Assembly (NCBI GenBank): GCA_041660005.1
Contig: JBAZXG010000001.1
Location: 71,689-135,688, forward strand
Direction: 5' to 3'
DNA: 64,000 nucleotides
Source of the DNA: Patescibacteria group bacterium
Lineage (GTDB): Bacteria; Patescibacteriota; Patescibacteriia; GWA2-46-9
Shown piece by piece: positions 7,133 through 57,957 of this stretch. Position 1 is the stretch's first letter; every line of letters begins with the position of its first letter. A program made the translations under genes and the position numbers. Under the pieces are notes generated by a model. It was not told where the DNA came from and made no database searches. It saw only the letters and a program-made list of their open reading frames with translations.

Positions 7133-7357
7133 TAATCCCTCCTTGCTGATCGAAACTCGTTGTCTCGCAGCTGAATAAACTACATTTTTTTTTAAAAAAA
7201 GTCAATACTACCGTACGGGTAAAACTGCCTAATGGCAGCATATAGCCTTTCATGTCGAAGCATGACGAAAAGTTCGAAAATCGTTGCAAGCCGAATCGGC
7301 GTCGTTACTGCCCAAAGACTATTGCCGAGGATAGTGAGTGAAGTGCAAATGGCAATT

Positions 7358-7388
7358 TGCATTTCCGAGCGACGTTAGAATCAAAGGG
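7358..7388 (+). repeat. 30-bp conserved motif TGCATTTCCGAGCGACGTTAGAATCAA(A)GGG, copy 1 of 2
   Basis: Near-identical copy at 57928-57957. Contains a TAGAAT -10-like hexamer. Confidence 0.5.
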
Positions 7389-8792: not shown

Positions 8793-8930
8793 TAACAGTA
8801 AATCGGTAATCCCACTTCGCTAATCTTTTTCGCCTAAACTATGACGGGTCAAGAAGCTACCCGGGATATTTTTGCCTCAGTAATGGTAACCTCGCGGCAA
8901 GCCGACGAGGTATTGGCAAAAATAACCTTG
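8793..8930 (+). repeat. Sequence upstream of valS that recurs in expanded form at 48205-48430
   Basis: CCCACTTCGCTAA...GACGGGTCAAGAAGCTAC...GGTAACCTCGCGGCAAGCCGACGAGGTATTGG. The 32-nt core is identical in both copies and can form a 6-bp stem with an 11-nt loop. Confidence 0.6.
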
Positions 8931-15488: not shown

Positions 15489-16034
15489 ATGAAAAAAATA
15501 ATAGGTACAGTAGCGTTGGTCGCTCTATTTTTGGGTGTACTCAGTTTTTCTCCTTCTAAGGCGTTGGCGGTGAGTGGAACATGCGACTGCTTCAATGATA
15601 CGACGGGAGCTGCTGTCGGGACATGGCAAAAAACTGAGGAAGAGTGCACTGCGATGGACCAGTCTCAATCGGCGAGCATAAATTGCTTTTTTACTGCGGA
15701 TAACACCGGAGTGGGCGGCAACACCGGTGTGGGTGGTAATCAACAAGCTGGAGCCGGGAAAACAGTCACGCTCAAAAACCCCCTCGGCGAAACTGATGTG
15801 CGCGTCATTATCGGCCGCATCATTCGTGTTGCTCTTGGCATTGTCGGCTCCCTTGCGCTCCTCATTATCATCTACGGCGGGCTTACCTGGCTAACGTCAT
15901 TTGGAAACGATGAGCGCGTTAAGCAAGGTCGTGACACGCTCGTCTGGGCGGCAATAGGTCTTGTGGTCATTCTCACGAGTTACGTTGTGGTAAATTTCTT
16001 ATTTACCGGGATTGCTGGGTTGTCAGGATCATAA
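15489..16034 (+). CDS. Secreted membrane protein resembling type IV secretion pilin (TrbC/VirB2-like, CPR-type T4SS_pilin architecture)
   Basis: Signal peptide, a Cys-containing region, then two C-terminal TM helices separated by a short loop (LLIIIYGGLTWLTSFGNDERVKQGRDTLVWAAIGLVVILTSYVVVNF). Confidence 0.5.
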   Translation: MKKIIGTVALVALFLGVLSFSPSKALAVSGTCDCFNDTTGAAVGTWQKTEEECTAMDQSQSASINCFFTADNTGVGGNTGVGGNQQAGAGKTVTLKNPLGETDVRVIIGRIIRVALGIVGSLALLIIIYGGLTWLTSFGNDERVKQGRDTLVWAAIGLVVILTSYVVVNFLFTGIAGLSGS

Positions 16035-16056
16035 ATTTAATTTGTTGCTTAAATAT

Positions 16057-16085
16057 AAACCCGCCACACGGCGGGTTTATTATTT
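16057..16085 (+). terminator. Rho-independent terminator
   Basis: AAACCCGCCACACGGCGGGTTTATTATTTT. Confidence 0.75.
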
Positions 16086-16140
16086 TCCAAAAAGTTTTTT
16101 CAAAAAAAATTTTAACCTGGCCATTGCATGGCCGGAGGTT

Positions 16141-16525
16141 GTCTATTTCTTTGTGCGGGCAAAGAAATAGACGAAAGAAAGCCCGCCCCGCATCGACGCT
16201 CCTGGTCAGCAGCCATTTCGAAACGAACACGGCGGCAATGAACTCGCTTTCAGCTCAAACAGCATTGCCGCTCTCTCGTGTTCGTTTCGTCCGTCTGCTC
16301 TCCCCGGTCGATGAGGGGGTTTGTGAAACAAGAGTGCAAAGCCCATAGGATCGGCGTCGGTAATGATTAGCGGAGAGAACCGAAAGAATGGTCGTGCTGT
16401 TTGACCCTGAGCGAAGTCGAAGGGGAGTTCACGACCATCGGTTTTCGGAGTGCAGTCATGCCCCAGCCGAGTCCTCAGGGTGTCTTTCTTTCCGTCCACT
16501 TTCTTGGACAAGCAAGAAAGTGGAC
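16141..16525 (+). repeat. Structured noncoding element family, copy 1 (~390 nt), bounded by palindromic hairpins
   Basis: 5' hairpin GTCTATTTCTTTG-N7-CAAAGAAATAGAC and 3' hairpin GTCCACTTTCTTG-GACAAG-CAAGAAAGTGGAC. The ~170-nt core is near-identical to copies at 29004-29382 (inverted) and 47057-47272. A variable long hairpin sits at the same position with different sequence in each copy. A conserved tail extends to about 16790. Confidence 0.75.
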
Positions 16526-16745
16526 AACTAGTCTCGAGGCCGGAGGCCGAGGACGTTATGTTCGTAGAGTGAAAAAATTCCCATAAGATCAATGTTGGTA
16601 GTGACACGTACAAAGAGAGCCACTAACCCTTAGTGTCTGGTCGTGACAGTGAGATCAGAGTCTACGGTGTTGGTTCACAGTTATTTACTTTTAACTTGCA
16701 GTTTTGCCTTTTGCCTTTTAATTTTTGAATTATCCCCTTTTATAT

Positions 16746-16774
16746 TTGACATTTCCCCCGATTTGTGCTAGGAT
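16746..16774 (+). promoter_or_regulatory. Sigma70-like promoter TTGACA-N17-TAGGAT at the 3' end of the conserved element tail
   Basis: Read from sequence. Sits about 250 nt upstream of the first high-GC island gene. The equivalent position in the 47-kb copy has TTGACA followed by a weaker -10. Confidence 0.45.
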
Positions 16775-17024
16775 GCCAGGTTCTTTTAGAAATGTGCCAC
16801 CAGCATATTTCTAGAAGGATGGTCAGTCCCGCTCATTGAAAAGTGAATAGGATTGAACACCGCGCAAACCTGGCGTGGTGTACTTTCGTGTTCGAAAGTT
16901 CACGAAAGTCCATCAAAGGTAAAAATAAATAATCCAAACCGGACCGCTACACCAAGCGGCAACCGCCACCTTATCAACTCACTAGCAAGTCGCGCACGAT
17001 CGGCGACAAGGAGCGAGAACTCAA

Positions 17025-18098
17025 ATGGCAGGAAGAGCGGGTCGAGGAGACCCAGGTGGTGGTGCGGGAGACCCGAACGGGGTACCCGAGTCGCTTCGGA
17101 TAGACGGAATACGTCTCTGGACTGAAGCGCGTGCAGGCGGAACCTACGCCGCACACGCAGTGGTACGGACGACGCAAAACCGAAAGACCGTAACGAGACA
17201 GGCCGCACTCACGGTAAATGGCATTGCGAGAAACGATGCCGGCGCCGTGAGCGAAACGAACGCCAGGGATGGGCAGACCATCCTGACGACAATCGTGGAT
17301 CCTGTCGTCGACGGACTTTCGGTCGAGGTCAACGCCTTCATTGTCGGAACAACGGTCACAGCAACTCCGCGGCGACTGCTGTTCACTGGTACCACGGCTG
17401 TGGAAATCAAACCAGTGAAAACAGTCACGGCACGGACGACGGGTGCGAAGAGTGACATGCACCACGTTCCAGTCGGACTGTTCGATGAGAACGGATCCCC
17501 GACAATCGGAACGGCACGGGCACTCTACGGCGACTGCGCTGTGGACCACTGCATCGGTCTCGGCGGTCTCGTGCTCCCGTTCACCGTTCCCGACGGCGAG
17601 ACGCTGGCAGTCACGATCGAGTCCCCTGGAGCAGCACCAATAACGGTAGCGCTTCAAGGGCGCGACAAGCCGAGTCCCCCGCCGCGACCAGCGAAAGTTC
17701 AGCTGGCGGCGCTGCCGACGACGTGGGACGCAACGACCGGTGCAAGCAGCACGATTTCAACACCCCGCGCCTACGACAGCAACGGTGACGGAGTCGAGTG
17801 CCATCTCTTCTTCGCTACCAAGAGACCCGTCAGGATGATCGTTCGCGAGGACGGAAAAAGGACGATCACACACAACAACGTACGGGCTTTCGACTTCCAT
17901 GTGAAAGCAAAGCCCACAACGAGCTGTGAGTTCGTCAACGTTCACGAAGAACACATTGAAGTGAACTGCGATGTCCTCGGACTCGACGGCGCAATCGATA
18001 ACATGGTACTGCCTGCCGCCGAACCCCGACCCGGGGAATGGCGCGCCGACATGACCAAAACGGAAAAGCGGCGATACTATCGCCTGGGAGGCAAGTGA
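17025..18098 (+). CDS. Hypothetical protein (high-GC island 1)
   Basis: About 63% GC. AAGGAG RBS 11 nt upstream of the ATG. No recognisable family. Confidence 0.5.
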   Translation: MAGRAGRGDPGGGAGDPNGVPESLRIDGIRLWTEARAGGTYAAHAVVRTTQNRKTVTRQAALTVNGIARNDAGAVSETNARDGQTILTTIVDPVVDGLSVEVNAFIVGTTVTATPRRLLFTGTTAVEIKPVKTVTARTTGAKSDMHHVPVGLFDENGSPTIGTARALYGDCAVDHCIGLGGLVLPFTVPDGETLAVTIESPGAAPITVALQGRDKPSPPPRPAKVQLAALPTTWDATTGASSTISTPRAYDSNGDGVECHLFFATKRPVRMIVREDGKRTITHNNVRAFDFHVKAKPTTSCEFVNVHEEHIEVNCDVLGLDGAIDNMVLPAAEPRPGEWRADMTKTEKRRYYRLGGK

Positions 18099-18973
18099 TG
18101 ATGACCATACCACAGGTGGCGCTTTACATCGCCATCATGGTTCTCGGAATGGTTGCCTTCGGGTGGCCGTTCTGTGAGTTCGTACTCGTGATGACGCTCA
18201 TAGTCATTGGCATCTTTGCTGTCCTCTTCTGGCAACGCCGGACAGAGTGGCAGGAGTTGCCGGAAGACGTGCGTTCAGCGCGAGAAAACAGAACCGAATA
18301 TTGGCTCGCGATGACGGGTCGTTTCCCGTCCAATAACATCGTCTGGTGCGGTTGGATTGCAGCGGCAATGCTCTCGAGCATCATCGCCGTAACTCATCCA
18401 GGTCCAAGCGCGATTGACTACCTCACGGCGCCGCAATCGTCGCGGGCGAGAGAAATCACGCAACAGACCGACCGAGAAATCGCTGCCTTGTGGCATCTCG
18501 CCAAAACGGGAAGTTTCAGCGGCGGCGAGTCGGTCACAACCGAAGACGAAGCGAAGGAAGCTGGTGACTGGCGACGGTGGCCGATGAGTCTGTACATGTG
18601 GTTCATGGCCCTCGTCCTCCTCGTCCCGACCATCTGGGACGAACTGAGGGAAGCGGGAAGAAGCGCTGTCGATCATACGTACCGCCACTTTGGTGGTAAC
18701 GTCACGATCACAGGACCTGGAGCCGGCTTCGCAACAAGCCTGCTCAACGCGGCGGCACGTCGCGCTGGAACCACGCTAACGTTGCCGACCACACCCCCAA
18801 CCCCTGCTCCCGCACCCGTACTGGGCGCACCGCCATCAACCGGCTCGTCCATTGACCGTGCGGTTGCATCAATCACGTCGAGCACGTTCCTACAACACGT
18901 GCTCGCCAGCCTGATCCCGGAATTACTCGACCGAGTATCCTGGGGTCGTATCCTGCATAGGAGAACAGCATGA
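18098..18973 (+). CDS. Hypothetical membrane protein (high-GC island 1)
   Basis: GGAGG RBS. Start overlaps the preceding stop (TGATGA). Several TM segments and a Pro/Thr/Ala-rich linker. Confidence 0.55.
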   Translation: MMTIPQVALYIAIMVLGMVAFGWPFCEFVLVMTLIVIGIFAVLFWQRRTEWQELPEDVRSARENRTEYWLAMTGRFPSNNIVWCGWIAAAMLSSIIAVTHPGPSAIDYLTAPQSSRAREITQQTDREIAALWHLAKTGSFSGGESVTTEDEAKEAGDWRRWPMSLYMWFMALVLLVPTIWDELREAGRSAVDHTYRHFGGNVTITGPGAGFATSLLNAAARRAGTTLTLPTTPPTPAPAPVLGAPPSTGSSIDRAVASITSSTFLQHVLASLIPELLDRVSWGRILHRRTA

Positions 18974-20394
18974 ACTTCTGGACCGAAAACTGGAAACGGA
19001 TGGCCGGCGGCCTGCTCTTGCTCGCCGTTCTCACTCACTACGTGATGGGCGTCGGCTACTTTGCCTCGCTCATCACCGCAACCTGCATGGCGGGTGCAGT
19101 CTATGCCCGCTCGTGGCTCATCGCTTCCACCTGGAAGCGAACGGGTAACGCCGTCCTCGCTGCGCTCGTCGTGTTCGTCGCTTGGAGGGTAGCCACCAAC
19201 TACCTGCCAGAAACGATGAACACGCTACGCAAAAACGTCTCGGTGACGGACTCCGTCAGCAAGCAGCTGACGAAGGGCGATACTACCGGCGTGTCGATCT
19301 CGGCTGGACGCCGAGAGTTCTGGCAGGAGAGGGCTGAACTAAAGCTCAGGGCAGACATGGACCTCGCGTTCTGGCGCTGGAATCGGTACAACACCGATGA
19401 CGCGGGGAGGCAAAAAGAAGAGGCAGAGGCAATTGCGAGCTACCGCACCCGGATCGACGAGCTAGAGAGGCAGTTCTCAATGACTCCTCCGACGATGTCG
19501 AAGGTCGTCGAAGGAGTTCGCACAGGAGCTTCTGTCGCCGTCGGCTTCGACTGGCGAGGATGGTTGATGAGCTTCACTACCGGTGAAGTCATGTCATACT
19601 GCATCTTCGTCATTCTGGTCCTCGCTGCTCTGCGGCTCGCGTTCGGCCTCTGGACCAGCCCGGGTTCCATCCTGGGCCGGCTCGGCTACTGGCAGCAAGT
19701 GGCTGTTGCGATCCTGATCGTCGCCGTCGCCAGTGGAACGGCGGTCTGGGGCTACAGTGGCCGGTTCTTGAGCGACGCGGTACAGGCCGGAGCTCACAAG
19801 GTCCTAGACGGCGTTGTCGAACTCAAAGGGAAGGCCATACTGGTCAACCCCGAGGGAACGAACGTCGTGCTGGACGGGTCGGAGGAGATGCCAATCCAGG
19901 TTGCCATCTACCACGGACTCCTTCAGCCGGTCAGACTCGAACACCCTGAGACGAGAGTCTACGCCTGCCGACTCGACGACTACGGCGAGGAAGACGGGTG
20001 CGGCTGGGGTCTGCGACGCCTTTTGGAAGGCTCAACCACGACCACAACGATGCCGCCCACAGCGGCACCGCAACCAACTGCTACTGCGGGTGCAACGCCC
20101 GCTACGGCCCCCGTCTATGTAGACGGGAAGGCAACCTACACAGAGTGGGATGGCGTCCTCAGTGCCGGGGAAGAGGTGTGCACGTACGGGCCAACGAACA
20201 CACCGCAAAACAAGCCCCTGCGCATCTTGGACGCGTGGGGAAAGAGCCTGCTCGGTCTGGACGAGCAGGGCGAGGAGAAACTGCAAGTTCCAGGTAGCGG
20301 TCACACCCTTGGCGACTACAGCGGCGTAATCTGCCGCCAAGCCGTCGAAGACGGCACAGCGCTGCGTATCCGGCCCGGATACGCAGGAACATGA
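18970..20394 (+). CDS. Hypothetical membrane protein (high-GC island 1)
   Basis: ATGA start/stop overlap with the upstream gene. TM segments, a TTTTMPPTAAPQPTATAGATPATAP linker, and a Cys-containing C-terminal domain. Confidence 0.55.
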   Translation: MNFWTENWKRMAGGLLLLAVLTHYVMGVGYFASLITATCMAGAVYARSWLIASTWKRTGNAVLAALVVFVAWRVATNYLPETMNTLRKNVSVTDSVSKQLTKGDTTGVSISAGRREFWQERAELKLRADMDLAFWRWNRYNTDDAGRQKEEAEAIASYRTRIDELERQFSMTPPTMSKVVEGVRTGASVAVGFDWRGWLMSFTTGEVMSYCIFVILVLAALRLAFGLWTSPGSILGRLGYWQQVAVAILIVAVASGTAVWGYSGRFLSDAVQAGAHKVLDGVVELKGKAILVNPEGTNVVLDGSEEMPIQVAIYHGLLQPVRLEHPETRVYACRLDDYGEEDGCGWGLRRLLEGSTTTTTMPPTAAPQPTATAGATPATAPVYVDGKATYTEWDGVLSAGEEVCTYGPTNTPQNKPLRILDAWGKSLLGLDEQGEEKLQVPGSGHTLGDYSGVICRQAVEDGTALRIRPGYAGT

Positions 20395-20531
20395 AACCCA
20401 AGACGGGACTCGCCCAACAAAGGAGGCGGGCGGGTCCCAAGAACCGAAGAGCGAGAGCAGGACCATGCCCACCACGCATGTCTCCCTGCCTCGCTCTTTT
20501 TCGTTACCTAAAAAACAGCTATGCTTCCCAC

Positions 20532-21380: not shown

Positions 21381-21662
21381 CTAAACTAAATGTTTAGTAA
21401 TGAATGCCCTACCTGACCCCGACTTGAAATACTTCTCAAGAATGAACGCTGTCTTTTTGTCTCTAACACCGATATAAAAAGAAAGCTCCACCGGTAAACG
21501 ACCTTTAGTTGCAGGGACGAAACCTTTTCGATGTCTAGCTATCCTTTCTTTAAGATCTGCGGTGCAACCAACATAATACCCATCCTTACATTTGAGTGAA
21601 TAGATATAGTACATACATGCCCGCTTACTCTCCAAACAATAAATGATAACTGGCTTTGCCAA
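21381..21662 (-). CDS. GIY-YIG nuclease-domain protein
   Basis: IYCLESKRACMYYIYSLKCKDGYYVGCTADLKERIARH matches the GIY-YIG motif layout. Confidence 0.65.
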   Translation of the reverse strand: MAKPVIIYCLESKRACMYYIYSLKCKDGYYVGCTADLKERIARHRKGFVPATKGRLPVELSFYIGVRDKKTAFILEKYFKSGSGRAFITKHLV

Positions 21663-21930
21663 GCCGAAGCTTGAAGAACGAGGATGGCTTTGCCAAGCCG
21701 AAGCTTGAAGAACGAGGATGGCTTTGCCAAGCCGTAGCTATGGCGAAGGATTGTGGGCTGCATCAAACAAACATCTCAGTCCGACTACGCTAAGGCTTCG
21801 TCGTGACAGCCTTCGCTAAACCTAAGTAACTGGCTTTGCCAAGCCGAAGCTTGAAGAACGAGGATGGCTTTGCCAAGCCGTAGCTTGAAGAACGAGGATG
21901 GCTTTGCCAAGCCGTAGCTATGGCGAAGGC
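21641..21930. repeat. Tandem 33-34-bp repeats (TGGCTTTGCCAAGCCGAAGCTTGAAGAACGAGGA) in two blocks of three, abutting the tRNA-Asp 3' end
   Basis: Six copies read directly: 21641, 21675 and 21709 (variant), an 80-bp spacer, then 21821, 21855 and 21889 (variant). The variant unit ...GCCGTAGCTATGGCGAAGG precedes both the spacer and the tRNA. Confidence 0.8.
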
Positions 21931-21931
21931 T

Positions 21932-22009
21932 GGCGGACCCGACCGGATTCGAACCGGCGATCTTCTCCGTGACAGGGAGACGTGTTAACCGGGCTACACC
22001 ACGGGTCCG
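21932..22009 (-). tRNA. tRNA-Asp (anticodon GTC)
   Basis: Minus strand reads CGGACCCGUGGUGUAGCCCGGUUAACACGUCUCCCUGUCACGGAGAAGAUCGCCGGUUCGAAUCCGGUCGGGUCCGCCA. It has a 7-bp acceptor stem, an anticodon loop CUGUCAC, and a T-loop UUCGAAU. Confidence 0.9.
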
Positions 22010-23181: not shown

Positions 23182-23261
23182 AGCAGCTGATTTTACTTCA
23201 CGCGGTCGATAGGTTCTACGCAAGGGAAAGAAATAAAATAAATAAATTCGTCTGTGCCAAC

Positions 23262-23345
23262 CGTCGCTTATAGAACGAAAGTGGCTTGCCAGCCGTAGCT
23301 CACAGAACAAGGATGGCTTGCCAGCCGTAGCTCGAAGAGCGAAGG
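23262..23345. repeat. Two further tandem ~33-bp repeats of the same family (TGGCTTGCCAGCCGTAGCTC...), abutting the tmRNA 3' end
   Basis: Same family as the 21641-21930 repeats, with the GCGAAGGCTGG junction variant again next to the RNA gene. Confidence 0.7.
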
Positions 23346-23390: not shown

Positions 23391-23776
23391 TGGTGGAGAT
23401 GAGGGGAATCGAACCCCTGTGTGAAAAGTGGAACCCGAGAAAGACTACAGGTATAGTCGCCGTTCAATTCTATGCTCGTCGAAGTCCGACGACGACGCGA
23501 CGAGTTGATTTCCGGTAATACTCAGTGGCAGTGTCGGAAAGCCACCACCTTGAGCGCCGAATAATATGGCACCCCGGACGCTCTCATTCGGCGAGAGAGC
23601 AGGGATGGTTCTCGGTTTTATTAGGCGAGAACGGGTACAAAGCTCAGCGACGCAAAAGCGTTCTGAACCTTGCGAGCCAATGAAGTGGCATGTATCTGTT
23701 TGAGAGAGATTTAGGAGCTATCTCACGCTCCACCTGCTTTTTCGGAAGGAACTTTCCGTCGAATCCAAAGCATCCC
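23391..23776 (-). ncRNA. ssrA: tmRNA (SsrA)
   Basis: 5' GGGGAUGCUUUGGAUUCGACGG and 3' GGGGUUCGAUUCCCCUCAUCUCCACCA tRNA-like ends. Internal candidate tag reading frame ...GCG UCG CUG AGC UUU GUA CCC GUU CUC GCC UAA UAA. smpB is immediately adjacent. Confidence 0.85.
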
Positions 23777-23783
23777 CAGATGC

Positions 23784-28584: not shown

Positions 28585-28848
28585 CTACCTGGAGCGGTCG
28601 CCCATCGGGCGCGCTTCATTGACAGTAATCGTACGACCACCGAGCTCCTTGCCGTTCATTGCTGAAACAGCGGCGTCAGCCTCGTCGTCATTAGACATTT
28701 CGACGAAACCAAAACCCTTGGAGCGGCCGGTCATGCGATCATTAATTATTGTGGCGGAAACAACCGTACCAGAACCAGAAAACGCCTCTTTAAGTTCGTC
28801 TTCTGTAGTGCTGTACGGAAGGCCTCCGACAAACAGTCGCTTAGCCAT
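28585..28848 (-). CDS. RRM-domain RNA-binding protein
   Basis: RNP-2 LFVGGL and RNP-1 KGFGFVEM, 87 aa. Confidence 0.85.
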   Translation of the reverse strand: MAKRLFVGGLPYSTTEDELKEAFSGSGTVVSATIINDRMTGRSKGFGFVEMSNDDEADAAVSAMNGKELGGRTITVNEARPMGDRSR

Positions 28849-29003
28849 TCTCGTTCAAAGTTTAGTATCTTAATTATGCGTAGTAAGACGACCTACTTTC
28901 TCGCCCGGCTGTTTAGATAAGATATCAAACTCCGCTCGAGAACCCTTACGACGATCGAACACAGAGTAGCACAATCAATCCTGTTTGTAAAGTCAGGGCA
29001 AAT

Positions 29004-29382
29004 GTCTACTTTCTTGCTTGTCCAAGAAAGTAGACGGAAAGAACGACACCCTGAGGACTCGGCTGAGGTATGACTGCACTCCGAGAACCGATGGTCGTGA
29101 ACTCGTCGTTAGCACTCCTCAAACAGCACGACCATTACTTCGGTTCTCTCCACTGGTCATCACCGACGCCGATCCTATGGGATTCTGCGCCAATTTTGCT
29201 CAAACCCCATTGCCGACCGAGGAAGGCGAACGGACGAAATGCAGGTGATTAAGCGACGATGCTGTTCGAAGCATTAGCAAGTTCATCGTCGCCACCTGCA
29301 CTGAGGAACGTTCGCCGACAACAGTGTCGGCACAGGGCGGGTTTTCTTTCGTCTATTTCTTTGCCCGAACAAAGAAATAGAC
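29004..29382 (-). repeat. Structured noncoding element family, copy 2 (inverted orientation)
   Basis: The reverse complement matches copy 1 from the hairpin GTCTATTTCTTTG...CAAAGAAATAGAC through the ~170-nt core to the hairpin GTCTACTTTCTTG-GACAAG-CAAGAAAGTAGAC. Its 3' end faces the RRM gene start. Confidence 0.75.
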
Positions 29383-29568
29383 AACCTACAGCCCCGTCTG
29401 ACGGGGCGAGGTTAATGAGTATTTTTTCTAAAAATTCTTTTGGTTCATTTTCTTGAGCGCTTAAGAAAATAAAAAACTTATGGGTACTTGACGACTACCT
29501 ACAGCAGGTTCACACTTTCCGACATTAATGTCATCACGTCGGCCAAAAGCCGAAAGGAGTGGAAACGC

Positions 29569-29893
29569 GATGAGGGCGAAGGTAGCGGTAGCGGCTTGTG
29601 TTTTGGCTCTTTCGGTGGTCGGTTGCGGAACTCCGCCATCGAGCGAGCCCAACGGAGGGGTTGCAATTGCGTCCGCGGCGCAGGTCGCGCCGTGGAGGAA
29701 AGTCAAGAGAAACTTCCTTTTTGCGATTGGCGACGCGTTCGACGCGTGCCGAGACAAGAGCAGAAAGGGGTGCAAGAGGAGCAAATCAGCCATCGGGCTC
29801 AAACTCCTCGAGGTCGAAGGGTCACGGTGGGCGCCCTACGAAGAGCGCCTGAAGAAACTAGCAGACTCCGGACTCATTGACGAGTTCGATTAG
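29569..29893 (+). CDS. Putative lipoprotein (high-GC cassette)
   Basis: AAGGAG RBS. MRAKVAVAACVLALSVVGCGT is a signal peptide with a lipobox-like VVGC. About 62% GC. Confidence 0.5.
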
Positions 29894-36133: not shown

Positions 36134-37411
36134 TTAGCGCTTGCCGCTCGATTTCCCAAAACGCGATGATTGGTACGGGGGTCGTCGACGAGGTTTATTG
36201 CCGAATCCACCTGAGCTGGGTCTTGAAAAACGTGACGGTCGATCGCTACTTTCAAATTCACTACTTGATTTTCGTGCCGGCGGTAACTCAGGTAATTTTG
36301 ATATCGGCAGCACCAGGCGAATAAGTCGCTCAATGTCTCTCACGTTCGACCCTTGGTCTGGCGTAGCAAACGATATGGCGTGACCGCGAAGTCCGGCACG
36401 ACCGGTTCGGCCAATGCGGTGCACGTAATCTTCAGGGTTTTCAGGAAGATCAAAATTAACCACGAGTTCAATATTCGTTACATCAATGCCGCGTGCGGCA
36501 ATATCGGTGGCGATGAGTACCCGATACTTCCCTCGCTTGAACCCCTCGAGCGCTTCACGCCGCTGAGCCAGACTGCGATTGGAGTGTATTTCAGCAACGC
36601 GTACACCCATGCCGCGAATGTCACGCGTTATTCTGCTCACCGCATGTTTAGTGCGCGAGAAAACGAGCACCGTCCCGTGGTACTCGGAAAAAAGTTTTTC
36701 CAGAAGTCGCAACTTATCGTCGCGCCTCACCACAAACAGCTCGTGCGTTACGTGGTCTGCAGTTGAACCAGGACGAGCAATTTCCACACGCACCGGAAGT
36801 TGCATATAGGACTTTACCAATCGAACAATCTGGTCTGGCATCGTCGCGGAAAAAAGCATTGTTTGCCGATCTTTTGGCAGGACTTTAAGAATGCGCTGAA
36901 TCTGCGGCATAAAGCCCATATCGAGCATGCGATCGGCTTCGTCGAGCACCAGCACCCGAATATCATTTAATTTCACTGAACCGTGTTCAAGGTGATCAAT
37001 GAGTCGTCCCGGGGTCGCGACAATGACGTGGGGCTTCTTTGCCAAGCTCCGCTGCTGACCACCAATCGGCATACCGCCAATGAGCACGGCAGTTCTGAGC
37101 CCAATAGGCCGCCCGATTTTTTGCAATGTTTCTTCTACCTGCAGCGCCAGTTCACGCGTTGGCAACATGATCAACCCTCGCCCTTTCACTTCTGCCAAAC
37201 GCTGGAGTAGCGGTATCCCAAAAGCCAACGTTTTACCGGTGCCCGTTTGAGCAATACCGATCATGTCTTTCCCCTGTATAGCCAGCGGAATGGATTGGCG
37301 TTGAATCGGTGTTGGTACGGTATACGATGCTTTTTCGAGCACCTCTAAAAGCTTCGGAGCTATGCCGAGGCCAAAAAAACTATCCTTTTCTGTACTATTC
37401 TTTTCTGTCAT
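36134..37411 (-). CDS. DEAD-box ATP-dependent RNA helicase
   Basis: Q-motif, TGTGKT, DEAD, SAT, HRIGRTGRAG, and a C-terminal Arg/Gly/Ser-rich tail. Confidence 0.9.
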   Translation of the reverse strand: MTEKNSTEKDSFFGLGIAPKLLEVLEKASYTVPTPIQRQSIPLAIQGKDMIGIAQTGTGKTLAFGIPLLQRLAEVKGRGLIMLPTRELALQVEETLQKIGRPIGLRTAVLIGGMPIGGQQRSLAKKPHVIVATPGRLIDHLEHGSVKLNDIRVLVLDEADRMLDMGFMPQIQRILKVLPKDRQTMLFSATMPDQIVRLVKSYMQLPVRVEIARPGSTADHVTHELFVVRRDDKLRLLEKLFSEYHGTVLVFSRTKHAVSRITRDIRGMGVRVAEIHSNRSLAQRREALEGFKRGKYRVLIATDIAARGIDVTNIELVVNFDLPENPEDYVHRIGRTGRAGLRGHAISFATPDQGSNVRDIERLIRLVLPISKLPELPPARKSSSEFESSDRPSRFSRPSSGGFGNKPRRRPPYQSSRFGKSSGKR

Positions 37412-37495
37412 AAATTTTCTAGCGACGTGTTATATCAAACAGCTGGAGGAGTATAGCACAAAACACTCAATTAAACGAACTCCTCGCACCATGAA

Positions 37496-39292
37496 TTACC
37501 TTTTTTCTCTAAGCACGTTTCGGAGAATGCGTTTTCTGAGGCGAATACTGTGCGGCGTTACTTCAACGAGTTCGTCGTCGCCAATATATTCAAGTGCAAG
37601 TTCAATCGTCATCTCTCGTGGCGGAGCAAGGTCAGAGGTCGTAATGTCTTTGTTGGCACGGAAGTTCGTGAGGGCTTTTGCTTTGCAAACGTTCACCACC
37701 ATATCTTCAGCTTTCGCGTTTTGCCCCACCACTTGACCTTCATATACCTGAACCGCTGGACCAACGAAGAGTTCACCGCGTTCTTGCACTTTGAGTAACG
37801 CATACGAAGTGGTCTCTCCTGGTTCGTGGGCAATGAGCGACCCGTGCGGATTGGCGTCAATGTCTGCTGCTTTCGGAAAGTACCCGGCGAAGAGCGAGTT
37901 TAAAATGCCGAGGCCTTTGGTCTCGATAATAAATTCATTACGAAAACCGATGAGACCGCGCGTCGGAATGAAGAAATGCAAGTGCGCCTCGTTGTTGTCA
38001 ACGTGCATGTTTTTCATTTCTGCTTTACGCATTGCCATTTTTTTAATAACCATGCCGGAGTATGCGTCTGGTACGTCAATCCAGACGTCCTCGGTGGGCT
38101 CTAACACTTTGCCGTTTTCTTCTTTATAAATAACCTCAGGGCGCGATACCTGCAATTCATAATCTTCACGACGCATTTTTTCAATGAGAATTGCCAGGTG
38201 GAGCTCGCCGCGTCCGCTCACCACAAACTCATCTGCCGACTGCCCGGGGTCAACCTTAAGCGCAACATCGTTATCGAGTTCTTTCGTCAATCGTTCTCGC
38301 AAATTGCGTGAGGTGCAATACTGTCCATCCTCACCCGCAAAAGGAGAGGTGTTCACGCTAAACGTCATGCGCACTGTCGGTTTTTCAATGGCAATGGGTG
38401 GCAATGCTTCGGGAGCTTCGGCGCTCGCGATGGTGTCGCCAATGTTCACATCCGGTATACCAGCAACAAGCGCAATGTCGCCCGCATAAACATTCTCAAT
38501 AACCACACGGTTTAACCCGACGTGCGTCATGAGTGCTGCAACCTTACTTTTGACTTCAGTACCATCGCGTCGTAAATGCGAAATGACACTGCCGTTTGTG
38601 ATGGTGCCTCGCGTCACGCGGCCAAGGGCAGTTCTGCCGAGGTAACTGTCGTAAATAGTGGATACCACCATCATCTGAAGTGGTGCCGACGCGTCAACTT
38701 TCGGTTCTGGAATATGTTTTATGATTGTGTGGAAAAGCGGCGAAACATCTTTCATTTCATTTATATCCGCCTCTAACCCTGCAAGCCCAAGTTTTCCAGA
38801 AGCATAAATGATCGGAAAATTAAGCTGTTCGTCAGACGCTCCAAATTCCATAAACAGTTCGATCACCTGATCGAGCGCGTAATTAACGCGAGCGTTAGGT
38901 TTATCAATTTTATTAATAACCACGATAATTTTGTGCTTGGCTTGAAGTGCTTTTTTCAAAACAAACCGCGTCTGTGGCATTGGTCCTTCCTGCGCGTCGA
39001 CTAGCAAAAGAGAACCGTCTGCCATATTGAGCACGCGCTCTACTTCCCCGCCGAAGTCCGCGTGACCCGGAGTGTCGATAATGTTAATTTTTGTGCCTTC
39101 AAAAACAACAGCGGCATTCTTCGCAAAAATGGTAATGCCACGCTCTTTTTCAATTTCGTTACTGTCCATGATGAGCTCCTGGCTGGCAAATTTGCCAAGC
39201 TCAGTACCAGATTGTTTCAGCAAAGCATCGACCAGCGTGGATTTCCCGTGGTCGACGTGAGCGATAATTGCGATGTTGCGAATTCCTGCCAT
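37496..39292 (-). CDS. typA: Translational GTPase TypA/BipA
   Basis: [17 protein letters not shown]1 motif and an EF-G-like domain order, about 600 aa. Confidence 0.88.
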
Positions 39293-39478
39293 AAAAATAG
39301 TATTACTCCTTTGTTGCCTGCGTCACTCGGAAATAAAAAGACCGCGCTAGTTACTGCACGGCGCCTGAAGACTTTACTAGAAAACCCGAATAAATGCAAG
39401 CCCTGACGGTTAAAGTCTTTTCACTGCATCAAACATTCAAGGCCAATACTCACCCACAAAAGACCCCGCCACAGCCGT

Positions 39479-39500
39479 TTCCATGTACTAGTACATGGAA
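39479..39500. promoter_or_regulatory. 22-bp perfect palindrome TTCCATGTACTAGTACATGGAA (site 1 of 5)
   Basis: Read directly. Lies just downstream of the last paralog gene. Confidence 0.7.
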
Positions 39501-39539
39501 ATTTATCAAGCAGTTAGTTAACAAAACAATAAAACAACG

Positions 39540-39869
39540 CTAGTACGCATCAACCCCGAACGGTCTCCAATTGTCAAATATTTGTCCTTGAGAGAGAAAA
39601 GTAAGGATAAGAAAAAATACAACGAAACCACAAAAAATTATTACATACGTTCTTTTGGTTGACCGAAAGCAGAATGCTGAAATCAAAAAACCAAACAAAA
39701 GGTAAAAAGGATATAACCAAAGTGCCCATGAAGGCCCGCCAAATAACGACAAATTAAATCGAGTTAATCTAGATTCTTCGCTTAATGTTATCAAGAGATA
39801 ACTAATGACTAAACCTATAACAATAAGAACGAATTTTCGCATTGCTGATCTAAAGCTAATTGATCGCAT
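39540..39869 (-). CDS. Small 3-TM membrane protein, paralog 1 (B-type) of a five-gene tandem array
   Basis: 109 aa. Conserved WLYPFYLL core and C-terminal QGQIFDNWRPFGVDAY. About 90% identical to 40788..41108. Confidence 0.8.
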   Translation of the reverse strand: MRSISFRSAMRKFVLIVIGLVISYLLITLSEESRLTRFNLSLFGGPSWALWLYPFYLLFGFLISAFCFRSTKRTYVIIFCGFVVFFLILTFLSQGQIFDNWRPFGVDAY

Positions 39870-40033
39870 AACTAATTTCTCCTTTGCTAATTAATAATTG
39901 TATATATTGTGAGCCATTGTACTCAATTTTCTTTTGCGGCTCTTCATATTCTTTGCTAACCACGAGTGTAGTGTCTGTTTTACCATTGAAGCGACCAACG
40001 GTAAAGCACTGGCTCATACCTTTTATGCTTACG

Positions 40034-40055
40034 TTTCCACGTACTAGTACATGGA
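40034..40055. promoter_or_regulatory. Palindrome site 2 (TTCCACGTACTAGTACATGGAA, one mismatch)
   Basis: Lies inside a roughly 105-bp intergenic block that is almost identical to the one at 41230-41335. Confidence 0.7.
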
Positions 40056-40096
40056 AATATATAAATAATCTGTGAATAAGAGAAAATCAGGTAGTA

Positions 40097-40429
40097 CTAA
40101 TAGGCGTCGACCCCGAACGGTTTCCAGTTGAAAAATATTTGACCCTGCGTCAAATAAAAAAACAGTAAAAAAACAACGATGAATCCCAAAACAACTCCTA
40201 AATAGGTACGTCTTCCAAAACGAAAAATCACAGCCGAGAGCAAGAACCCCAAAAGTAAATAAAAGGGATATAGCCAGTTTGCCCAGAAAAAAGTTCCAGC
40301 GCCAATTGATGTAATTTTTTTGAATTCACTTATGCCTAAAAACAGATAGCTTAACAAAAAACCGACCAGCCAAAAAAGTAGTGCTCTTATAACTTTTAAT
40401 ATACTAATCTTTTTCATAAGTAAACTCAC
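40097..40429 (-). CDS. Small 3-TM membrane protein, paralog 2 (A-type)
   Basis: 110 aa, MSLLMKKIS... ...NWKPFGVDAY. About 85% nucleotide identity to 41336..41668. Confidence 0.8.
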   Translation of the reverse strand: MSLLMKKISILKVIRALLFWLVGFLLSYLFLGISEFKKITSIGAGTFFWANWLYPFYLLLGFLLSAVIFRFGRRTYLGVVLGFIVVFLLFFYLTQGQIFFNWKPFGVDAY

Positions 40430-40458
40430 CTTTGCTGACGACTAACGATCACGTAATA

Positions 40459-40767
40459 CTAATAGGCATCAACACCAAACGGTCTCCAATTATCGAATAG
40501 GTGACCCTGTAGTGCATAAAACCAAAAAATAAAAAGGATAACAAACCCGATAAAAATCACTACATAGACCCACCTATTGGCGCGGAATACTGAAGCTGAA
40601 ATAAAAAAGGAAACGAAAAAGTATAATGGGTAAAGCCATAATGCCCAGGAAGCGCCGCCAAGGGGAACAAAATTCATGTGAGTAACTCCCGTATTCTCAC
40701 TTAGGCTTAATAACAAATATAAAATAAGTAGACCAAGAACGAAAAATTCAAAAGTCTTCATTGCCAA
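40459..40767 (-). CDS. Small 3-TM membrane protein, paralog 3 (divergent C-type)
   Basis: 102 aa, ...ALWLYPLYFF... ...DNWRPFGVDAY. Confidence 0.8.
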   Translation of the reverse strand: MAMKTFEFFVLGLLILYLLLSLSENTGVTHMNFVPLGGASWALWLYPLYFFVSFFISASVFRANRWVYVVIFIGFVILFIFWFYALQGHLFDNWRPFGVDAY

Positions 40768-40787
40768 CTAATAACGATCAAACAACA

Positions 40788-41108
40788 TTAGTAAGCGTCA
40801 ACCCCAAACGGTTTCCAGTTATCAAATATTTGACCTTGGGAGAGAAAGATAAAAATAAGAAAAAATACAACGAAACCACAAAAAATTACTACATACGTTC
40901 TTTTGGTTGACCGAAAGCATAATGCTGAAAGCAAAAAACCTAACAATAAATAAAAAGGGTAGAGCCAATTTGCCCAGTAACGAGTGCCCAACCCAATCGA
41001 TGTGACTTTATAAAACTCACTAACACCAAGAATGATGTAAGAGATCAGTAAACCCAAAAATAGAATCCCCAAAGAGCGCAGTAGTGATTTAATACTAATT
41101 AAATGCAT
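40788..41108 (-). CDS. Small 3-TM membrane protein, paralog 4 (B-type)
   Basis: 106 aa, ...CFRSTKRTYVVIFCGFVVFFLI... ...DNWKPFGVDAY. Confidence 0.8.
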   Translation of the reverse strand: MHLISIKSLLRSLGILFLGLLISYIILGVSEFYKVTSIGLGTRYWANWLYPFYLLLGFLLSALCFRSTKRTYVVIFCGFVVFFLIFIFLSQGQIFDNWKPFGVDAY

Positions 41109-41273
41109 AACTAATTTCTTTTTTACTAATTAACAATCGTATGTACTGTGAACCGTCATACTCAATTTTCTTTTGCGGCTCTTTGTATTCTTTGCTAACC
41201 GCAAGCGTGGTATCTGTTTTTCATTTGAAGCGACCAACGGTAAAGCACTGGCTCATACCTTTTATGCTTACGT

Positions 41274-41295
41274 TTCCACGTACTAGTACATGGAA
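41274..41295. promoter_or_regulatory. Palindrome site 3 (TTCCACGTACTAGTACATGGAA)
   Basis: Duplicate of site 2 within the tandemly duplicated unit. Confidence 0.7.
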
Positions 41296-41335
41296 ATATA
41301 TAAATAATCAGTGAATAAGAGAAAATCAAGTAGTA

Positions 41336-41668
41336 CTAATAGGCGTCGACCCCGTATGGTCGCCAATTATGAAATATTTGACCTTGTGTCAAGTAGGTGA
41401 ACAATAAAAAAACGACGATGAATCCCAGAAAAACTCCTAAATAGGTACGTCGTCCAAAACGAAAAATTGTAGCAGATAACAAGAACCCCAACAGAAGATA
41501 AAAAGGATAGAGCCAGTTTGCGTAAAAAAGTGTCCCCCAACCAACTGATGTAATTTTCTTAGCTTCACTTATGCTTAAGAACAGATAGCTTAACAAGAAA
41601 CCGACCAGCAAAAAAAGTAGTGCTCTTAGAACTTTTAACATACTAATCTTTTTCATAAATAAACTCAC
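41336..41668 (-). CDS. Small 3-TM membrane protein, paralog 5 (A-type)
   Basis: 110 aa, MSLFMKKIS... ...HNWRPYGVDAY. Start overlaps the 3' end of the upstream giant gene by 26 nt. Confidence 0.8.
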   Translation of the reverse strand: MSLFMKKISMLKVLRALLFLLVGFLLSYLFLSISEAKKITSVGWGTLFYANWLYPFYLLLGFLLSATIFRFGRRTYLGVFLGFIVVFLLFTYLTQGQIFHNWRPYGVDAY

Positions 41669-44876: not shown

Positions 44877-44979
44877 TATTATTAAATTAGTCCAATCTAA
44901 AAAATTCTGCAACACGACTTATGCACAAGCCCAGAAGTGTCAGCAGCTTCCGTGTATTCATCCCGAGGCATGTCGAGGG

Positions 44980-44993
44980 ACTAGTACATGGAA
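44980..44993. promoter_or_regulatory. Palindrome site 4 (half-site ACTAGTACATGGAA) in the promoter region of the giant gene
   Basis: The right half is intact; the left half is replaced by GTCGAGGG. Confidence 0.5.
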
Positions 44994-45277
44994 ATATATG
45001 ACTCTAAAATTCATCAATCGTTGGTTACCTTAACTTTGTTAACTAAAAAACAACAAAAAAACACCTTTGTGCCAAAATCATGACCTCAAACGTGACAACG
45101 ACCATGATTGCTTTTTTGGACTTTTTGAGGCAAGATAGCCCCGTTGTTCTTTAATAATAAATTCGGACGGACACTTAAATTGCCAATTTAATCGGCACTT
45201 TGGGCGTCCGTCTTGAATAAAGATAGCGACGAAGGAGCGGGACAAGAATCATGGCTACGAACACAGGAGGCAATTCC

Positions 45278-46901: not shown

Positions 46902-47056
46902 ATGGTCCTCCTTTTATTTCCCTATTCTGTAGTCCTCTCCCGAAGGAGTCGGTGTCATCAGAGAAACGTGCAAATATACACCAAGAGAACAGTTTTGTCA
47001 ACGGTAATGTATTAATAACTGCCCCTCGGTAGATTGATTTTATACCCGACCAACAA

Positions 47057-47272
47057 CCCATAGGATCGACGTAGGTAGTGACGAGCGGAGAGAACTGAAA
47101 TAATGGTCGTGCTGTTTGAGGAGTGCTAACGACGAGTTTACGACCATCGGTTCTCGGAGTGCAGTCATGCCACAGCCGAATCCTTAGGGTGTCATTTCCG
47201 CCGAAGGCGGATCGTTCTCCGAAGGACTTTCCGTCTACTTTCTTGGACAAGTCCCGACGTAAAGTCGGGACC
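47057..47272 (+). repeat. Structured noncoding element family, copy 3 (5'-truncated)
   Basis: Core CCCATAGGATCG...GGAGAGAAC...AATGGTCGTGCTGTTTGAGGAGTGCTAACGACGAGTTTACGACCATCGGTTCTCGGAGTGCAGTCATGCC... matches copies 1 and 2. The terminal hairpin is replaced by GTCCCGACGTAAAGTCGGGAC. The conserved tail (ACTTGCAGTTTTGCCTTTTG...TTTTGAATTAT...TTGACA) extends to about 47530. Confidence 0.7.
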
Positions 47273-47557
47273 CCGATTCAATAGATTTTATTAAGAATGG
47301 CGTCGGGACAAAAAGGTAACAATCAGTCTCGAGGTCCCGTCTGACAGGATCGAGGACGTTAAATTTGTTGAGCGAAAAAGAGAAACGTATCTGCTATAGT
47401 TTTTCCACCGTAAGTGGATCCGCAATTGGCGGAAGTTTTTGACTTGCAGTTTTGCCTTTTGATTTTTGAATTATTAGCTGTCCCTTTTGACATCCCCCAT
47501 TGAATCCTTTAACCTGCGGTCAAGGACAAAGACAAATGGGGATAAGGAGAGTGCAAC

Positions 47558-48064: not shown

Positions 48065-48140
48065 CCGACGCCGCCTACCAACCGCAACCAACTGTCCGAG
48101 AAGGAGTAGTTTATCCCCACTGCTCCTTCAACCCCCTTGT

Positions 48141-48162
48141 TTCCATGTACTAGTACATGTGC
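48141..48162. promoter_or_regulatory. Palindrome site 5 (TTCCATGTACTAGTACATGtgc, right end degenerate)
   Basis: Read directly. Followed by a CCCCGCCCCAGAGGGGACGGGG hairpin. Confidence 0.6.
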
Positions 48163-48204
48163 TTGCCTCAGAATACATTACCCCGCCCCAGAGGGGACGG
48201 GGTA

Positions 48205-48430
48205 TGTAATGGTGATCCCACTTCGCTAACCTCCTTCGCCTAGGCTACGGACGGTCAAGAACCTCCTTCGCTCCCACTTCGTATCAAACTACGGCGTGAC
48301 ACAGCAATGCTACGGCCGGTCAAGGACCTCCTTCACCTAGGGCTACGGCGGGTCAAGGAGCTACGAGGGATATTTTTGTCTTCTGCAACGGTAACCTCGC
48401 GGCAAGCCGACGAGGTATTGGGGACAAAAA
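48205..48430 (+). repeat. Expanded copy of the valS-upstream element, with three internal tandem copies of a ~30-bp motif (CTACGGNCGGTCAAGRANCTMC)
   Basis: GGTGATCCCACTTCGCTAACC... then three CTACGG-CGGTCAAG units, then the identical 32-nt core GGTAACCTCGCGGCAAGCCGACGAGGTATTGG. Confidence 0.65.
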
Positions 48431-57888: not shown

Positions 57889-57927
57889 TTTATTACCGGG
57901 TCTTCGAGCGAAGCGCACATAGCAAAG

Positions 57928-57957
57928 TGCATTTCCGAGCGACGTTAGAATCAAGGG
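57928..57957 (+). repeat. 30-bp conserved motif TGCATTTCCGAGCGACGTTAGAATCAAGGG, copy 2 of 2
   Basis: Matches 7358-7388. Confidence 0.5.

Follow-up and report, generated by a model that had tools for sequence, protein, structure and literature searches.

A head-to-head dimeric intergenic repeat with a predicted triplex and pseudoknot signature in a Patescibacteria genome, and its relatives in many unrelated bacteria

Within a 64,000-nucleotide stretch of a Patescibacteria group bacterium (assembly GCA_041660005.1, contig JBAZXG010000001.1, positions 71,689 to 135,688; hereafter the window), a hairpin-bounded sequence of a few hundred nucleotides recurs between genes, and the question it raises is what such a sequence is: a mobile repeat, the gene for a structured RNA, a substrate for recombination, or a regulatory leader. 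A descriptive answer is well supported. The copies are dimers, and in one case a monomer, of a widespread non-coding unit that carries a triplex and pseudoknot signature, has no partner gene, and is variable in its presence. The interpretation that we favour, with middling confidence, is that the unit is a non-autonomous, structure-defined, selfish mobile repeat acting as a folded single strand. A first-pass annotation of the window had recognised a family of structured elements and had missed the dimer architecture, the triplex and pseudoknot signature, and the spread across phyla.

Self-comparison of the window bears out three copies at about the places where they had been annotated. Two are full copies, c1 (16087-16578, + strand) and c2 (29003-29443, - strand), and one, c3 (47050-47380, + strand), is partial; counted as units, there are five per 64 kb window. 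The identity of c1 (16087-16526, +) with c2 (29443-29003, -) is 76% over 448 nt, and a core of ~140 nt is common to all three, at 83% identity between 16342-16487 of c1 and 47057-47196 of c3, and at 90% between 29042-29181 of c2 and 47196-47057 of c3. The full copies had been taken to start at their first hairpin, an extent that has to be lengthened at the 5' side, as the homology of c1 and c2 begins ~55 nt further upstream (16087/29443) and includes a small covarying hairpin. The terminal palindromes of the element are perfect 13-bp stems, and a degenerate pattern of the hairpin has three matches in the window against 0.00 expected in shuffles, with c1 hairpin 2 (GTCCAC...) lying just outside that pattern.

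The copies are real structured non-coding sequences. Compared with dinucleotide shuffles, their folds have z values of -6.5 (c1) and -10.0 (c2), and RNAalifold of c1 against c2 gives 124 pairs, with 16 changed on both sides, none broken, and eight changed on one side, all eight of which stay G-U compatible on the given strand. Most of the compensatory pairs (13 of the 16) fall in the long arm of the left unit (16190-16322), to which a fourth, partial variant found 3' of an identical pilin gene in another sample (L002) adds two more. An alignment of right units likewise contains compensatory changes at 18 of 46 predicted pairs, each altered on both sides in at least one sequence. The suspicion that substitutions between copies preserve a fold was thus well founded. 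The statement that the element has no open reading frame (ORF) holds in the narrower sense that the mechanical ORFs spanning it are not conserved as proteins. As would be expected of a repeat, short-read assemblies of the same strain stop within the element.

A full copy is itself composite. Each end is the same module in inverted orientation, made up of the hairpin, a run of purines, and a short complement of the loop, and the two halves are reverse-complement homologues, a profile of the right half matching the reverse complement of the left half in the metagenome loci (designated L with a number) L063 (E=1e-8), L085, L031, L054 and L077; c1 and c2 are therefore head-to-head dimers of one unit of ~230-260 nt, with arms pointing inward and hairpins outward. 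The apical motifs are inverted between the halves as well, the left half having GAACTC...TCAAACAGCA and the right half TGCTGTTTGA...GAGTTC. Read outward, a unit consists of an imperfect hairpin arm of ~150 nt, whose apex is often UGUUUGAG-[hairpin]-CGAGUU; 4-6 nt complementary to the loop of the terminal hairpin, with which they would form a pseudoknot; a U/C tract that mirrors the purine arm of that hairpin; the perfect 13-14-bp hairpin GUCUA-Yn...Rn-UAGAC; and a small distal GC hairpin. The GC-rich distal hairpins of the window (16114-16140, 16531-16554 and 47326-47357) keep their stems and vary in sequence.

In c1, on the + strand, the left unit opens with its distal part (16087-16140), an A/T-rich stretch followed by the small hairpin AACCT-GGCCATTGCATGGCC-GG-AGGTT (16114-16140), which is homologous to 29443-29383 of c2 with two stem pairs changed on both sides. 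Hairpin 1 (GTCTATTTCTTTG-TGCGGG-CAAAGAAATAGAC, a perfect 13-bp stem) occupies 16141-16172 and is followed at 16173-16189 by the purine flank GAAAGAAAG, which mirrors the purine arm of the hairpin, and by GCCCGC, which complements its loop, a signature repeated in ~40 distinct units. The long arm of the left unit (arm A, 16190-16322; apex GAACTCGC...TCAAACAGCA) is homologous to the reverse complement of the right arm and is separated from it by a short, variable spacer (16323-16341). The right arm (16342-16477), which the first-pass annotation had called the core, has the apex TGCTGTTTGA-[small hairpin]-GAGTTCA and is common to c2, c3, L031/L077, L063 and L085. It leads into GGGTGTC and the pyrimidine tract TTTCTTTCC (16478-16493), where UGUC pairs with the GACA of the hairpin-2 loop and the tract is the proposed third strand, and then into hairpin 2 itself (GTCCACTTTCTTG-GACAAG-CAAGAAAGTGGAC, 16494-16525). 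The distal part of the right unit (16526-16578) contains the hairpin GTCTCGAGGCC-GGA-GGCCGAGGAC (16531-16554) and GTTATG...GTGAAAAAA, and its covarying stem is kept in c3, L063, L031 and L085. The c2 dimer (29003-29443, - strand) has hairpin 1 at 29382-29351 and hairpin 2 at 29035-29004, and is without the distal hairpin of the right unit.

The third copy had been described as 5'-truncated. It is instead a complete single half-element, a monomer of the right-type unit, and its right hairpin is uncut. On the + strand its arm (47050-47193) ends in GGGTGTC (47187-47193) and is followed by a c3-specific hairpin insertion of ~33 nt (47194-47226), placed between GGGTGTC and the pyrimidine tract; the stretch 47227-47251 then holds the tract CTTTCC, hairpin 2's 5' arm (GTCTACTTTCTTG) and its loop, GACAAG. 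The loop holds an insertion of ~57 nt made of two hairpins (TCCCGACGTAAAGTCGGGA...TCGGGA, 47252-47308), which is also found in L031/L077 and L085, and beyond it (47309-47380) lie the degenerate 3' arm CAAAAAGGTAAC at 47309-47320, the distal hairpin at 47326-47357, and a tail. In L085 a perfect 13-bp stem closes around the same insertion. An explanation in which the c3 hairpin had been cut at a recombination or nick site in its loop was considered and rejected, given the loop insertion and the retained 3' arm. Both c1 and c3 share the distal hairpin (16531-16554/47326-47357) and a block further downstream (16689-16745/47437-47493). As a separate observation, the sequence TCCCGAC-N5-GTCGGGA, which forms a hairpin of the loop insertion in c3, L031 and L085, is the apical hairpin of a unit arm in L058 (505-545; TGTTTGAG-hairpin-CGAGTT), which suggests an exchange of modules between units.

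The conserved 3' domain is where the triplex and pseudoknot signature resides. The outward strand of each unit has the form 5'-arm-(GGG)-S-[U/C tract]-N-GUCUA-Yn-loop-Rn-UAGAC, and on the DNA of the window the motif appears as GTCTA-Y7-9...R7-9-TAGAC-R8-10. The U/C tract is the mirror image of the pyrimidine run of the hairpin, parallel and Hoogsteen-matched to the purine arm, and the mirror pairs seen include AAAGAAAA/GAAAAGAAA, AAAAGAAAG/GGAAAGAAAA and AAGAAAA/AAAAAGAAG. Assessed over ~40 distinct units from 60+ metagenome loci of 31-65% GC, the mirror identity of purine arm and flank is 0.98, compared with 0.935+-0.009 in 2000 shuffles, the highest of which reached 0.966. The complement between loop and flank averages 3.95 nt against 3.17+-0.12 in shuffles, and when one representative of each loop type is taken, the complement reaches 4 nt or more in 14 of 20, where 5.0 would be expected (P<1e-4); the pairings seen include UGUC/GACA, CGGGC/GCCCG, UCUCC/GGAGA, CGGCC/GGCCG, UCGCC/GGCGA and CAGC/GCUG. 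A minority of units with tetraloop-like loops have no loop pairing and keep the mirror tract. Within the window c1 and c2 show no compensation at the pseudoknot, so that pair was set aside as support for it, which comes only from covariation across the family.

From this covariation of register and loop complement over ~20 loop types, the terminal hairpin is probably clamped by a triple helix and a pseudoknot. The predicted topology is that of an H-type pseudoknot whose first loop would lie in the major groove of the 13-14-bp stem and form U.A-U and C+.G-C triples. A single nucleotide can span 5-7 bp across the deep groove, and the conserved 5-bp GUCUA/UAGAC base with its one-nucleotide linker would fit such a crossing. 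The H-type triplex pseudoknots of telomerase RNA, SAM-II, preQ1-II and the ENE type offer the nearest structural analogy, and no more than an analogy: the predicted order of a 5' stem-1 strand, a U-rich loop parallel to the purine strand of stem 2, and loop pairing is the same, as is the code of the triples, whereas stem 2 here is 13-14 bp long and could hold 7-9 triples, no ligand or gene goes with it, and its setting is a repeated element.

The fold also has a direction. In 27 of 32 units the outward strand has the better fold, with a mean advantage of 5.7 kcal/mol, and the + strand of the whole dimer folds better in all five dimers, a bias which indicates that the fold is read on one strand.

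The family extends well beyond the window. The degenerate hairpin pattern occurs at 68 metagenome loci, compared with ~0.1 expected by chance, and ~63 of these have the same flank signature. Full relatives of the window dimer are found at four loci (L031/L077, L063 and L085), the remainder sharing the architecture of the unit only. The host contigs span 31-65% GC; among them are an rpoD-dnaG locus of gammaproteobacterial type, an lpx locus resembling that of Bacteroidetes, and several contigs that resemble the candidate phyla radiation (CPR). Gammaproteobacteria-like loci also contain dimers with a variant left hairpin that falls outside the search pattern, so the family must be broader than the sample. 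Its presence in many unrelated bacteria is shown, and the identity of the hosts is suggested by the gene content and GC of the contigs.

The core of the window copies has a narrower range. Exact core words have no match in viral contigs or in JGI metagenomes, and the 16 matches in GTDB genomes all proved on follow-up blast to be due to chance; taken with the loci found by the hairpin pattern, these results imply that the core is confined to a narrow lineage and that only the hairpin module is widespread. The pattern itself is absent from 2.9 million viral contigs, and neither a window copy nor a unit of gammaproteobacterial type has a blastn match in the phage and plasmid collections. Rfam searches of the window and 18 related loci, at gathering and E-value thresholds, returned only tmRNA and tRNAs and nothing over the element, which places the family outside Rfam. 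Nor did searches of the literature by keyword and by motif sequence find a description of the element. The family, its architecture and its breadth appear new; the kind to which it belongs, a structured intergenic repeat with an intrastrand triplex motif, is known.

Are such units mobile? They are intergenic and multi-copy, with at least five copies in the contigs of one metagenome (Ga0256405), and their presence varies at syntenic sites. In L042 a unit lies between rpsL and a PHP-domain gene; the syntenic L068 is without a unit at that site and bears elsewhere a ~250-bp unit that is 94% identical to that of L042. The window itself supplies an empty site: its DEAD-box helicase and BipA genes (36137-39292) are separated by a spacer of 88 nt, while in L031 (6809-10640) and L077 (3974-6400) they are parted by ~2.4 kb made up of two high-GC ORFs and a unit dimer. 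Within one subfamily the apex of the arm has been swapped or lost. The boundaries of the unit can be narrowed to about +-10 nt, with a recurrent ACAAGG at both boundaries in one subfamily. Neither comparison of occupied with empty loci yielded a clean alignment across the empty site, and a nested insertion analysed in L066 likewise showed no clean boundaries.

Pfam searches of 131 non-redundant neighbour proteins found no enriched family and no transposase, reverse transcriptase, recombinase, TnpB or IscB, and the window ORFs tested, including 30 further ORFs, likewise contain none of these and no integrase. Non-autonomous mobility, which the first-pass annotation had entertained, is thus supported by the multiple copies, the occupied and empty syntenic sites, and the lack of an enzyme gene in the window or beside the 60+ loci. 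What finds no support is its filing under IS200/IS605. That proposal would make the element a palindrome-associated transposable element (PATE) or an orphan omega-RNA or HEARO-like guide RNA, used by a TnpA, TnpB or IscB encoded elsewhere in the genome. The likeness is genuine in that these elements too are hairpin-bounded, ORF-less, structured and multi-copy; the strand-specific fold is what single-strand transposition would lead one to expect, and pseudoknotted scaffolds are typical of omega-RNAs. Yet the end modules here are inverted repeats of one another and not same-strand left-end and right-end hairpins, the HEARO and IS605-orfB models of Rfam have no match at E<=10 over 16000-17000 and none at gathering thresholds in the window and 18 loci, and no Y1 transposase, TnpB, IscB or IsrB gene was found among the window proteins tested or beside the related units. 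The genes that point at the unit from its arm side are, moreover, ordinary housekeeping genes. On this evidence an IS200/IS605 affiliation is very unlikely.

A different source of mobility would be recombination, with the hairpins or flanking inverted repeats as sites at which a site-specific recombinase inverts unit-bearing segments in a phase-variable manner, or captures cassettes as at an integron attC. In favour of inversion is a 516-bp unit-bearing segment of one low-GC lineage, with perfect 31-bp inverted repeats (TACATAATACATGTTATATGCACTGTATTAT) upstream of accD, which is found in opposite orientations in L025 (7215-7730) and L052 (6286-6855); the same module of repeat, unit and repeat is present at further loci, and in L034 it stands on either side of a gene. 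The 13-6/7-13 architecture of the hairpin also resembles the core sites of recombinases. The window copies, in contrast, have no outer inverted repeats and are represented in one orientation, no recombinase gene was found among the tested window proteins or the neighbours of the loci, and the hairpin spacers differ between ends and between copies and covary with the flank, a pattern more indicative of base pairing than of strand exchange. Separately, the two units of L034 (4954-6967) are 201-nt inverted repeats, 97% complementary, that bracket a gene for a 347-aa protein without a Pfam family, a homologue of which adjoins a unit in L048; it may encode a surface protein subject to phase variation, or else a partner protein not so far recognised as one.

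The argument for cassette capture comes from the surroundings of the units. All six window-subfamily loci (c1, c2, c3, L031/L077, L063 and L085) stand at a boundary between native low-GC and foreign-looking high-GC DNA, and the high-GC neighbourhood reported earlier is confirmed at c1, where 16.9-20.5 kb has 55-65% GC against a background of ~47%. Recombination at the units would explain these foreign genes, among which are orphan ORFs and genes resembling purD and citramalate synthase (so named on sequence, not after a family search). The cargo has, however, no fixed orientation or side relative to the unit, and each foreign segment has a unit at one end only, which argues against a cassette-capture machine of the integron type. 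An attC site is, besides, a 57-141-nt imperfect palindrome with R and L boxes at the 3' end of a cassette, served by IntI; the units are larger, the position and orientation of the cargo are not fixed, and no integrase was found among the tested proteins. Taken together, we consider it unlikely that the units are recombination substrates. The junctions are compatible with mobile DNA having accumulated together at permissive sites. They are also compatible, by analogy, with what has been reported for intrastrand triplex repeats in bacteria, which are associated with rearranged loci (PMC4666352).

The cassette beside c1 (16900-20500, + strand) comprises three coupled orphan ORFs (17025-18098, 18038-18973 and 18970-20394). 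Its proteins belong to no Pfam or PHROG family, and the first has no homologue but itself among 5.8 billion proteins, an entry for which tracing led to no contig. The three ORFs are translationally coupled, one being beta-rich by composition and two having predicted membrane segments. The block that c1 has in common with c3 (16689-16774 in c1, 47437-47493 in c3) carries on the + strand a sigma-70-like promoter, TTGACA-17-TAGGAT with a TG extension, directed towards the high-GC genes, the assignment being a consensus match only; promoter-like pairs of hexamers 3' of c2 and c3 were seen by eye and were not reported by the scan tool. The c2 dimer is flanked by a divergent high-GC lipoprotein gene (29528-29893, +) and by a gene for an RRM protein (28585-28848, -). 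A suggestion that the c3 island and L063 share a locus beside an ABC permease was rejected, as the two permeases are 19% identical.

The orientation of neighbouring genes bears on two further explanations. On the hairpin side of a unit, the neighbouring gene is convergent with it 36 times and runs in the same direction 17 times; the corresponding numbers for the arm side are 20 and 23. The outer flank of 48 units is richer in terminator-like hairpins (15 directed toward the unit, 10 away) than the inner flank (7 and 3), and examples are the terminator of the pilin gene (16055-16080) and, next to L029 and L082, terminators of canonical form. That the element might be a 5' leader common to the genes downstream, an alternative raised in the first-pass annotation, or a riboswitch, could draw on the fact that c1, c2 and c3 each point at a downstream gene in the window, and triple-helix pseudoknots do occur in SAM-II and preQ1-II riboswitches. 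The downstream genes are, however, unrelated (orphan ORFs, an RRM protein and a MaoC-like protein), convergence on the hairpin side is twice as frequent as co-orientation, the promoter-like sites are downstream of the unit and not upstream, and no gene family is enriched beside units. A cis-regulatory role of this sort is therefore hardly credible.

The same counts are more favourable to the view that a unit or dimer is the gene for a stable, structured non-coding RNA that is transcribed outward, in which the triplex pseudoknot would shield the 3' end, or fix its position, or be bound by a conserved cellular factor, and which would have spread by horizontal transfer and duplication. Outward transcription would select for the scarcity of co-oriented genes on the hairpin side. 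The pairing of loop with flank and the covariation of the mirror tract are properties of a folded strand and not of protein sites in a duplex, the strand bias of units and dimers and the G-U compatibility of the one-sided substitutions both point to one strand, a 3' domain of 60 nt is conserved in sequence across hosts of 31-65% GC, and the units are absent from the viral, phage and plasmid collections searched. With its hairpin conserved across phyla and its strand bias, the RNA gene is the main competing explanation and a serious alternative. Against it, no promoter is predicted upstream of any unit of the window, and the dimers leave almost no room for one; five units in 64 kb, several copies in a single metagenome, and presence or absence at syntenic sites are not how a housekeeping RNA behaves; and the arm apex is exchanged or lost within a subfamily. 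On balance we find this explanation possible and somewhat doubtful.

Several known kinds of repeat resemble the unit in part and differ from it in part. The REP sequences (short for repetitive extragenic palindromes) and their doublets (REPINs and BIMEs, mobilised by RAYT proteins) are likewise short, structured, multi-copy intergenic palindromes without coding capacity, often by gene ends, with inverted doublets as the entity that is repeated. The differences are that units here have ~250 nt and a long arm where REP palindromes have 20-40 nt, that the halves of a dimer fold separately and not with each other, and that the mirror-repeat third strand, the loop pseudoknot and the conservation of sequence across phyla are features of the present family. 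No RAYT (Y1_Tnp) is among the families listed for the neighbours of units or the window proteins tested. MITEs (miniature transposable elements with inverted repeats) such as Correia/NEMIS, ERIC and RUP are also non-autonomous, a few hundred bp long, intergenic, variable among strains, furnished with inverted termini, and possible carriers of outward promoters. Terminal inverted repeats are indeed present here, as the ~45-nt end modules of c1 and c2 and as the perfect 31-bp repeats of the L025-type element; what sets the units apart is that secondary structure within each half is conserved through compensatory changes. No target-site duplication is visible at the L025 repeats or at the window copies, and none of the 68 loci holds a transposase-bearing relative that might be the parent insertion sequence.

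The intrastrand triplex repeats of the BoxC/TM_ECO type (Holder et al. 2015, PMC4666352) share with the units a hairpin with an adjacent mirror-repeat third strand, a multi-copy intergenic distribution, and occurrence at rearranged or variable loci. The TM_ECO motif is G/C-rich (CCCTCNCCC-N3-6-GGGNGAGGG-N3-GGGNGAGGG), ~40 nt long and proteobacterial; the motif of the window is of the A/T type and does not match that consensus, and the unit adds the 5-bp GTCTA/TAGAC clamp, the loop pseudoknot, the 150-nt arm, and a range of many phyla. One G/C-type case was seen, CCCCTCTCC-N9-GGAGAGGGG-TA-GGGGTGAGG at 7462-7510 of L025, inside the invertible element, and it resembles the E. coli BoxC/TM_ECO consensus.

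If the unit is a selfish mobile repeat, as we favour, it would be analogous to REPINs and MITEs and would propagate through a folded single strand, either single-stranded DNA or a transcript, and a factor encoded elsewhere would recognise it by the triplex-clamped hairpin. Sites beside gene ends and terminators would be preferred for insertion. The position of units at junctions of native and high-GC DNA might then arise from a gathering of mobile DNA at such plastic sites, or from rearrangement promoted by triplex-forming repeats, and some copies may supply an outward promoter. Several considerations weigh on the other side. No transposase or other mobilising enzyme was found among the tested window proteins or the 131 neighbours, neither a target-site duplication nor exact ends can be defined, and the presence, absence and inversion of units could arise by recombination at repeats and not by transposition. 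The conservation of GTCTA...TAGAC across hosts of 31-65% GC is unusual for the ends of a transposon, and binding by a host factor of universal occurrence, or a purely physico-chemical constraint, would account for it no less well. The triple helix is a deduction from covariation and geometry only; the strand data fit RNA and single-stranded DNA alike; the left unit of the window dimers folds no better on its own outward strand, a result that fits a single dimer-wide transcript better than two independent ends; and the orientation counts include related loci, which makes the effective sample smaller than it appears.

The surroundings of the copies hold other repeats. A second palindrome family, TTTCCATGTACTAGTACATGGAAA, has full copies at 39476-39509, 40032-40065 and 41271-41304, within a repeat-rich stretch of low GC (36-40%) at 39.4-41.6 kb, and inverted half-copies at 44960-44994 and 48140-48174 that bracket a 3.2-kb higher-GC segment holding c3, an arrangement suggestive of an inserted segment, or of an invertible one, with half-sites at its borders. 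The low-GC gap that separates the BipA gene from a gene for a 1090-aa lipase-like protein contains, at 39525-41539, a 219-nt repeat in five copies and a 300-nt repeat in two (61-84% identity). A tandem array of 34 nt (7.6 copies, 21651-21919) abuts a tRNA gene (21934-22008, -) and is overlapped by a GIY-YIG-like ORF (21381-21662, named from its sequence only), and a related array of 32 nt (2.5 copies, 23255-23333) abuts the tmRNA gene (23391-23777, -). An intergenic repeat of ~120-220 nt with GGTAACCTCGCGGCAAGCCGACGAGGTATTGG is present at 8805-8925, at the start of a gene for a class-I (Val-type) tRNA synthetase, and at 48211-48430, inside the c3 island, at 80-85% identity; a 52-nt repeat with the internal palindrome GCAAATGGCAATTTGC occurs at 7336-7387 and 57906-57957 with 87% identity.

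A bolder claim, which we advance tentatively, is that the unit represents a new cross-phylum class of structured RNA of ~250 nt, whose 3' domain would be a long, pseudoknot-locked major-groove triple helix, a bacterial counterpart of the ENE and telomerase triplexes, and in which the RNA would be the active agent. If so, it could be, for example, an RNA that resists nucleases, propagates itself or acts like a guide within a mobile element of a new kind, and where foreign genes are acquired by reduced genomes, those of CPR bacteria among them, the unit would mark that acquisition or promote it. Confirmation of the family would in any case add a widespread structured member to the small catalogue of bacterial intergenic repeats, with a defining motif among the longest natural triple-helix pseudoknots predicted in bacteria. 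The factor that would recognise the conserved GTCTA...TAGAC clamp may be a transposase, an RNA-binding protein or a nuclease. The units also offer a testable link between triplex-forming repeats and genome plasticity, and in CPR genomes they serve in practice to flag breaks in assemblies and cassettes gained by horizontal transfer.

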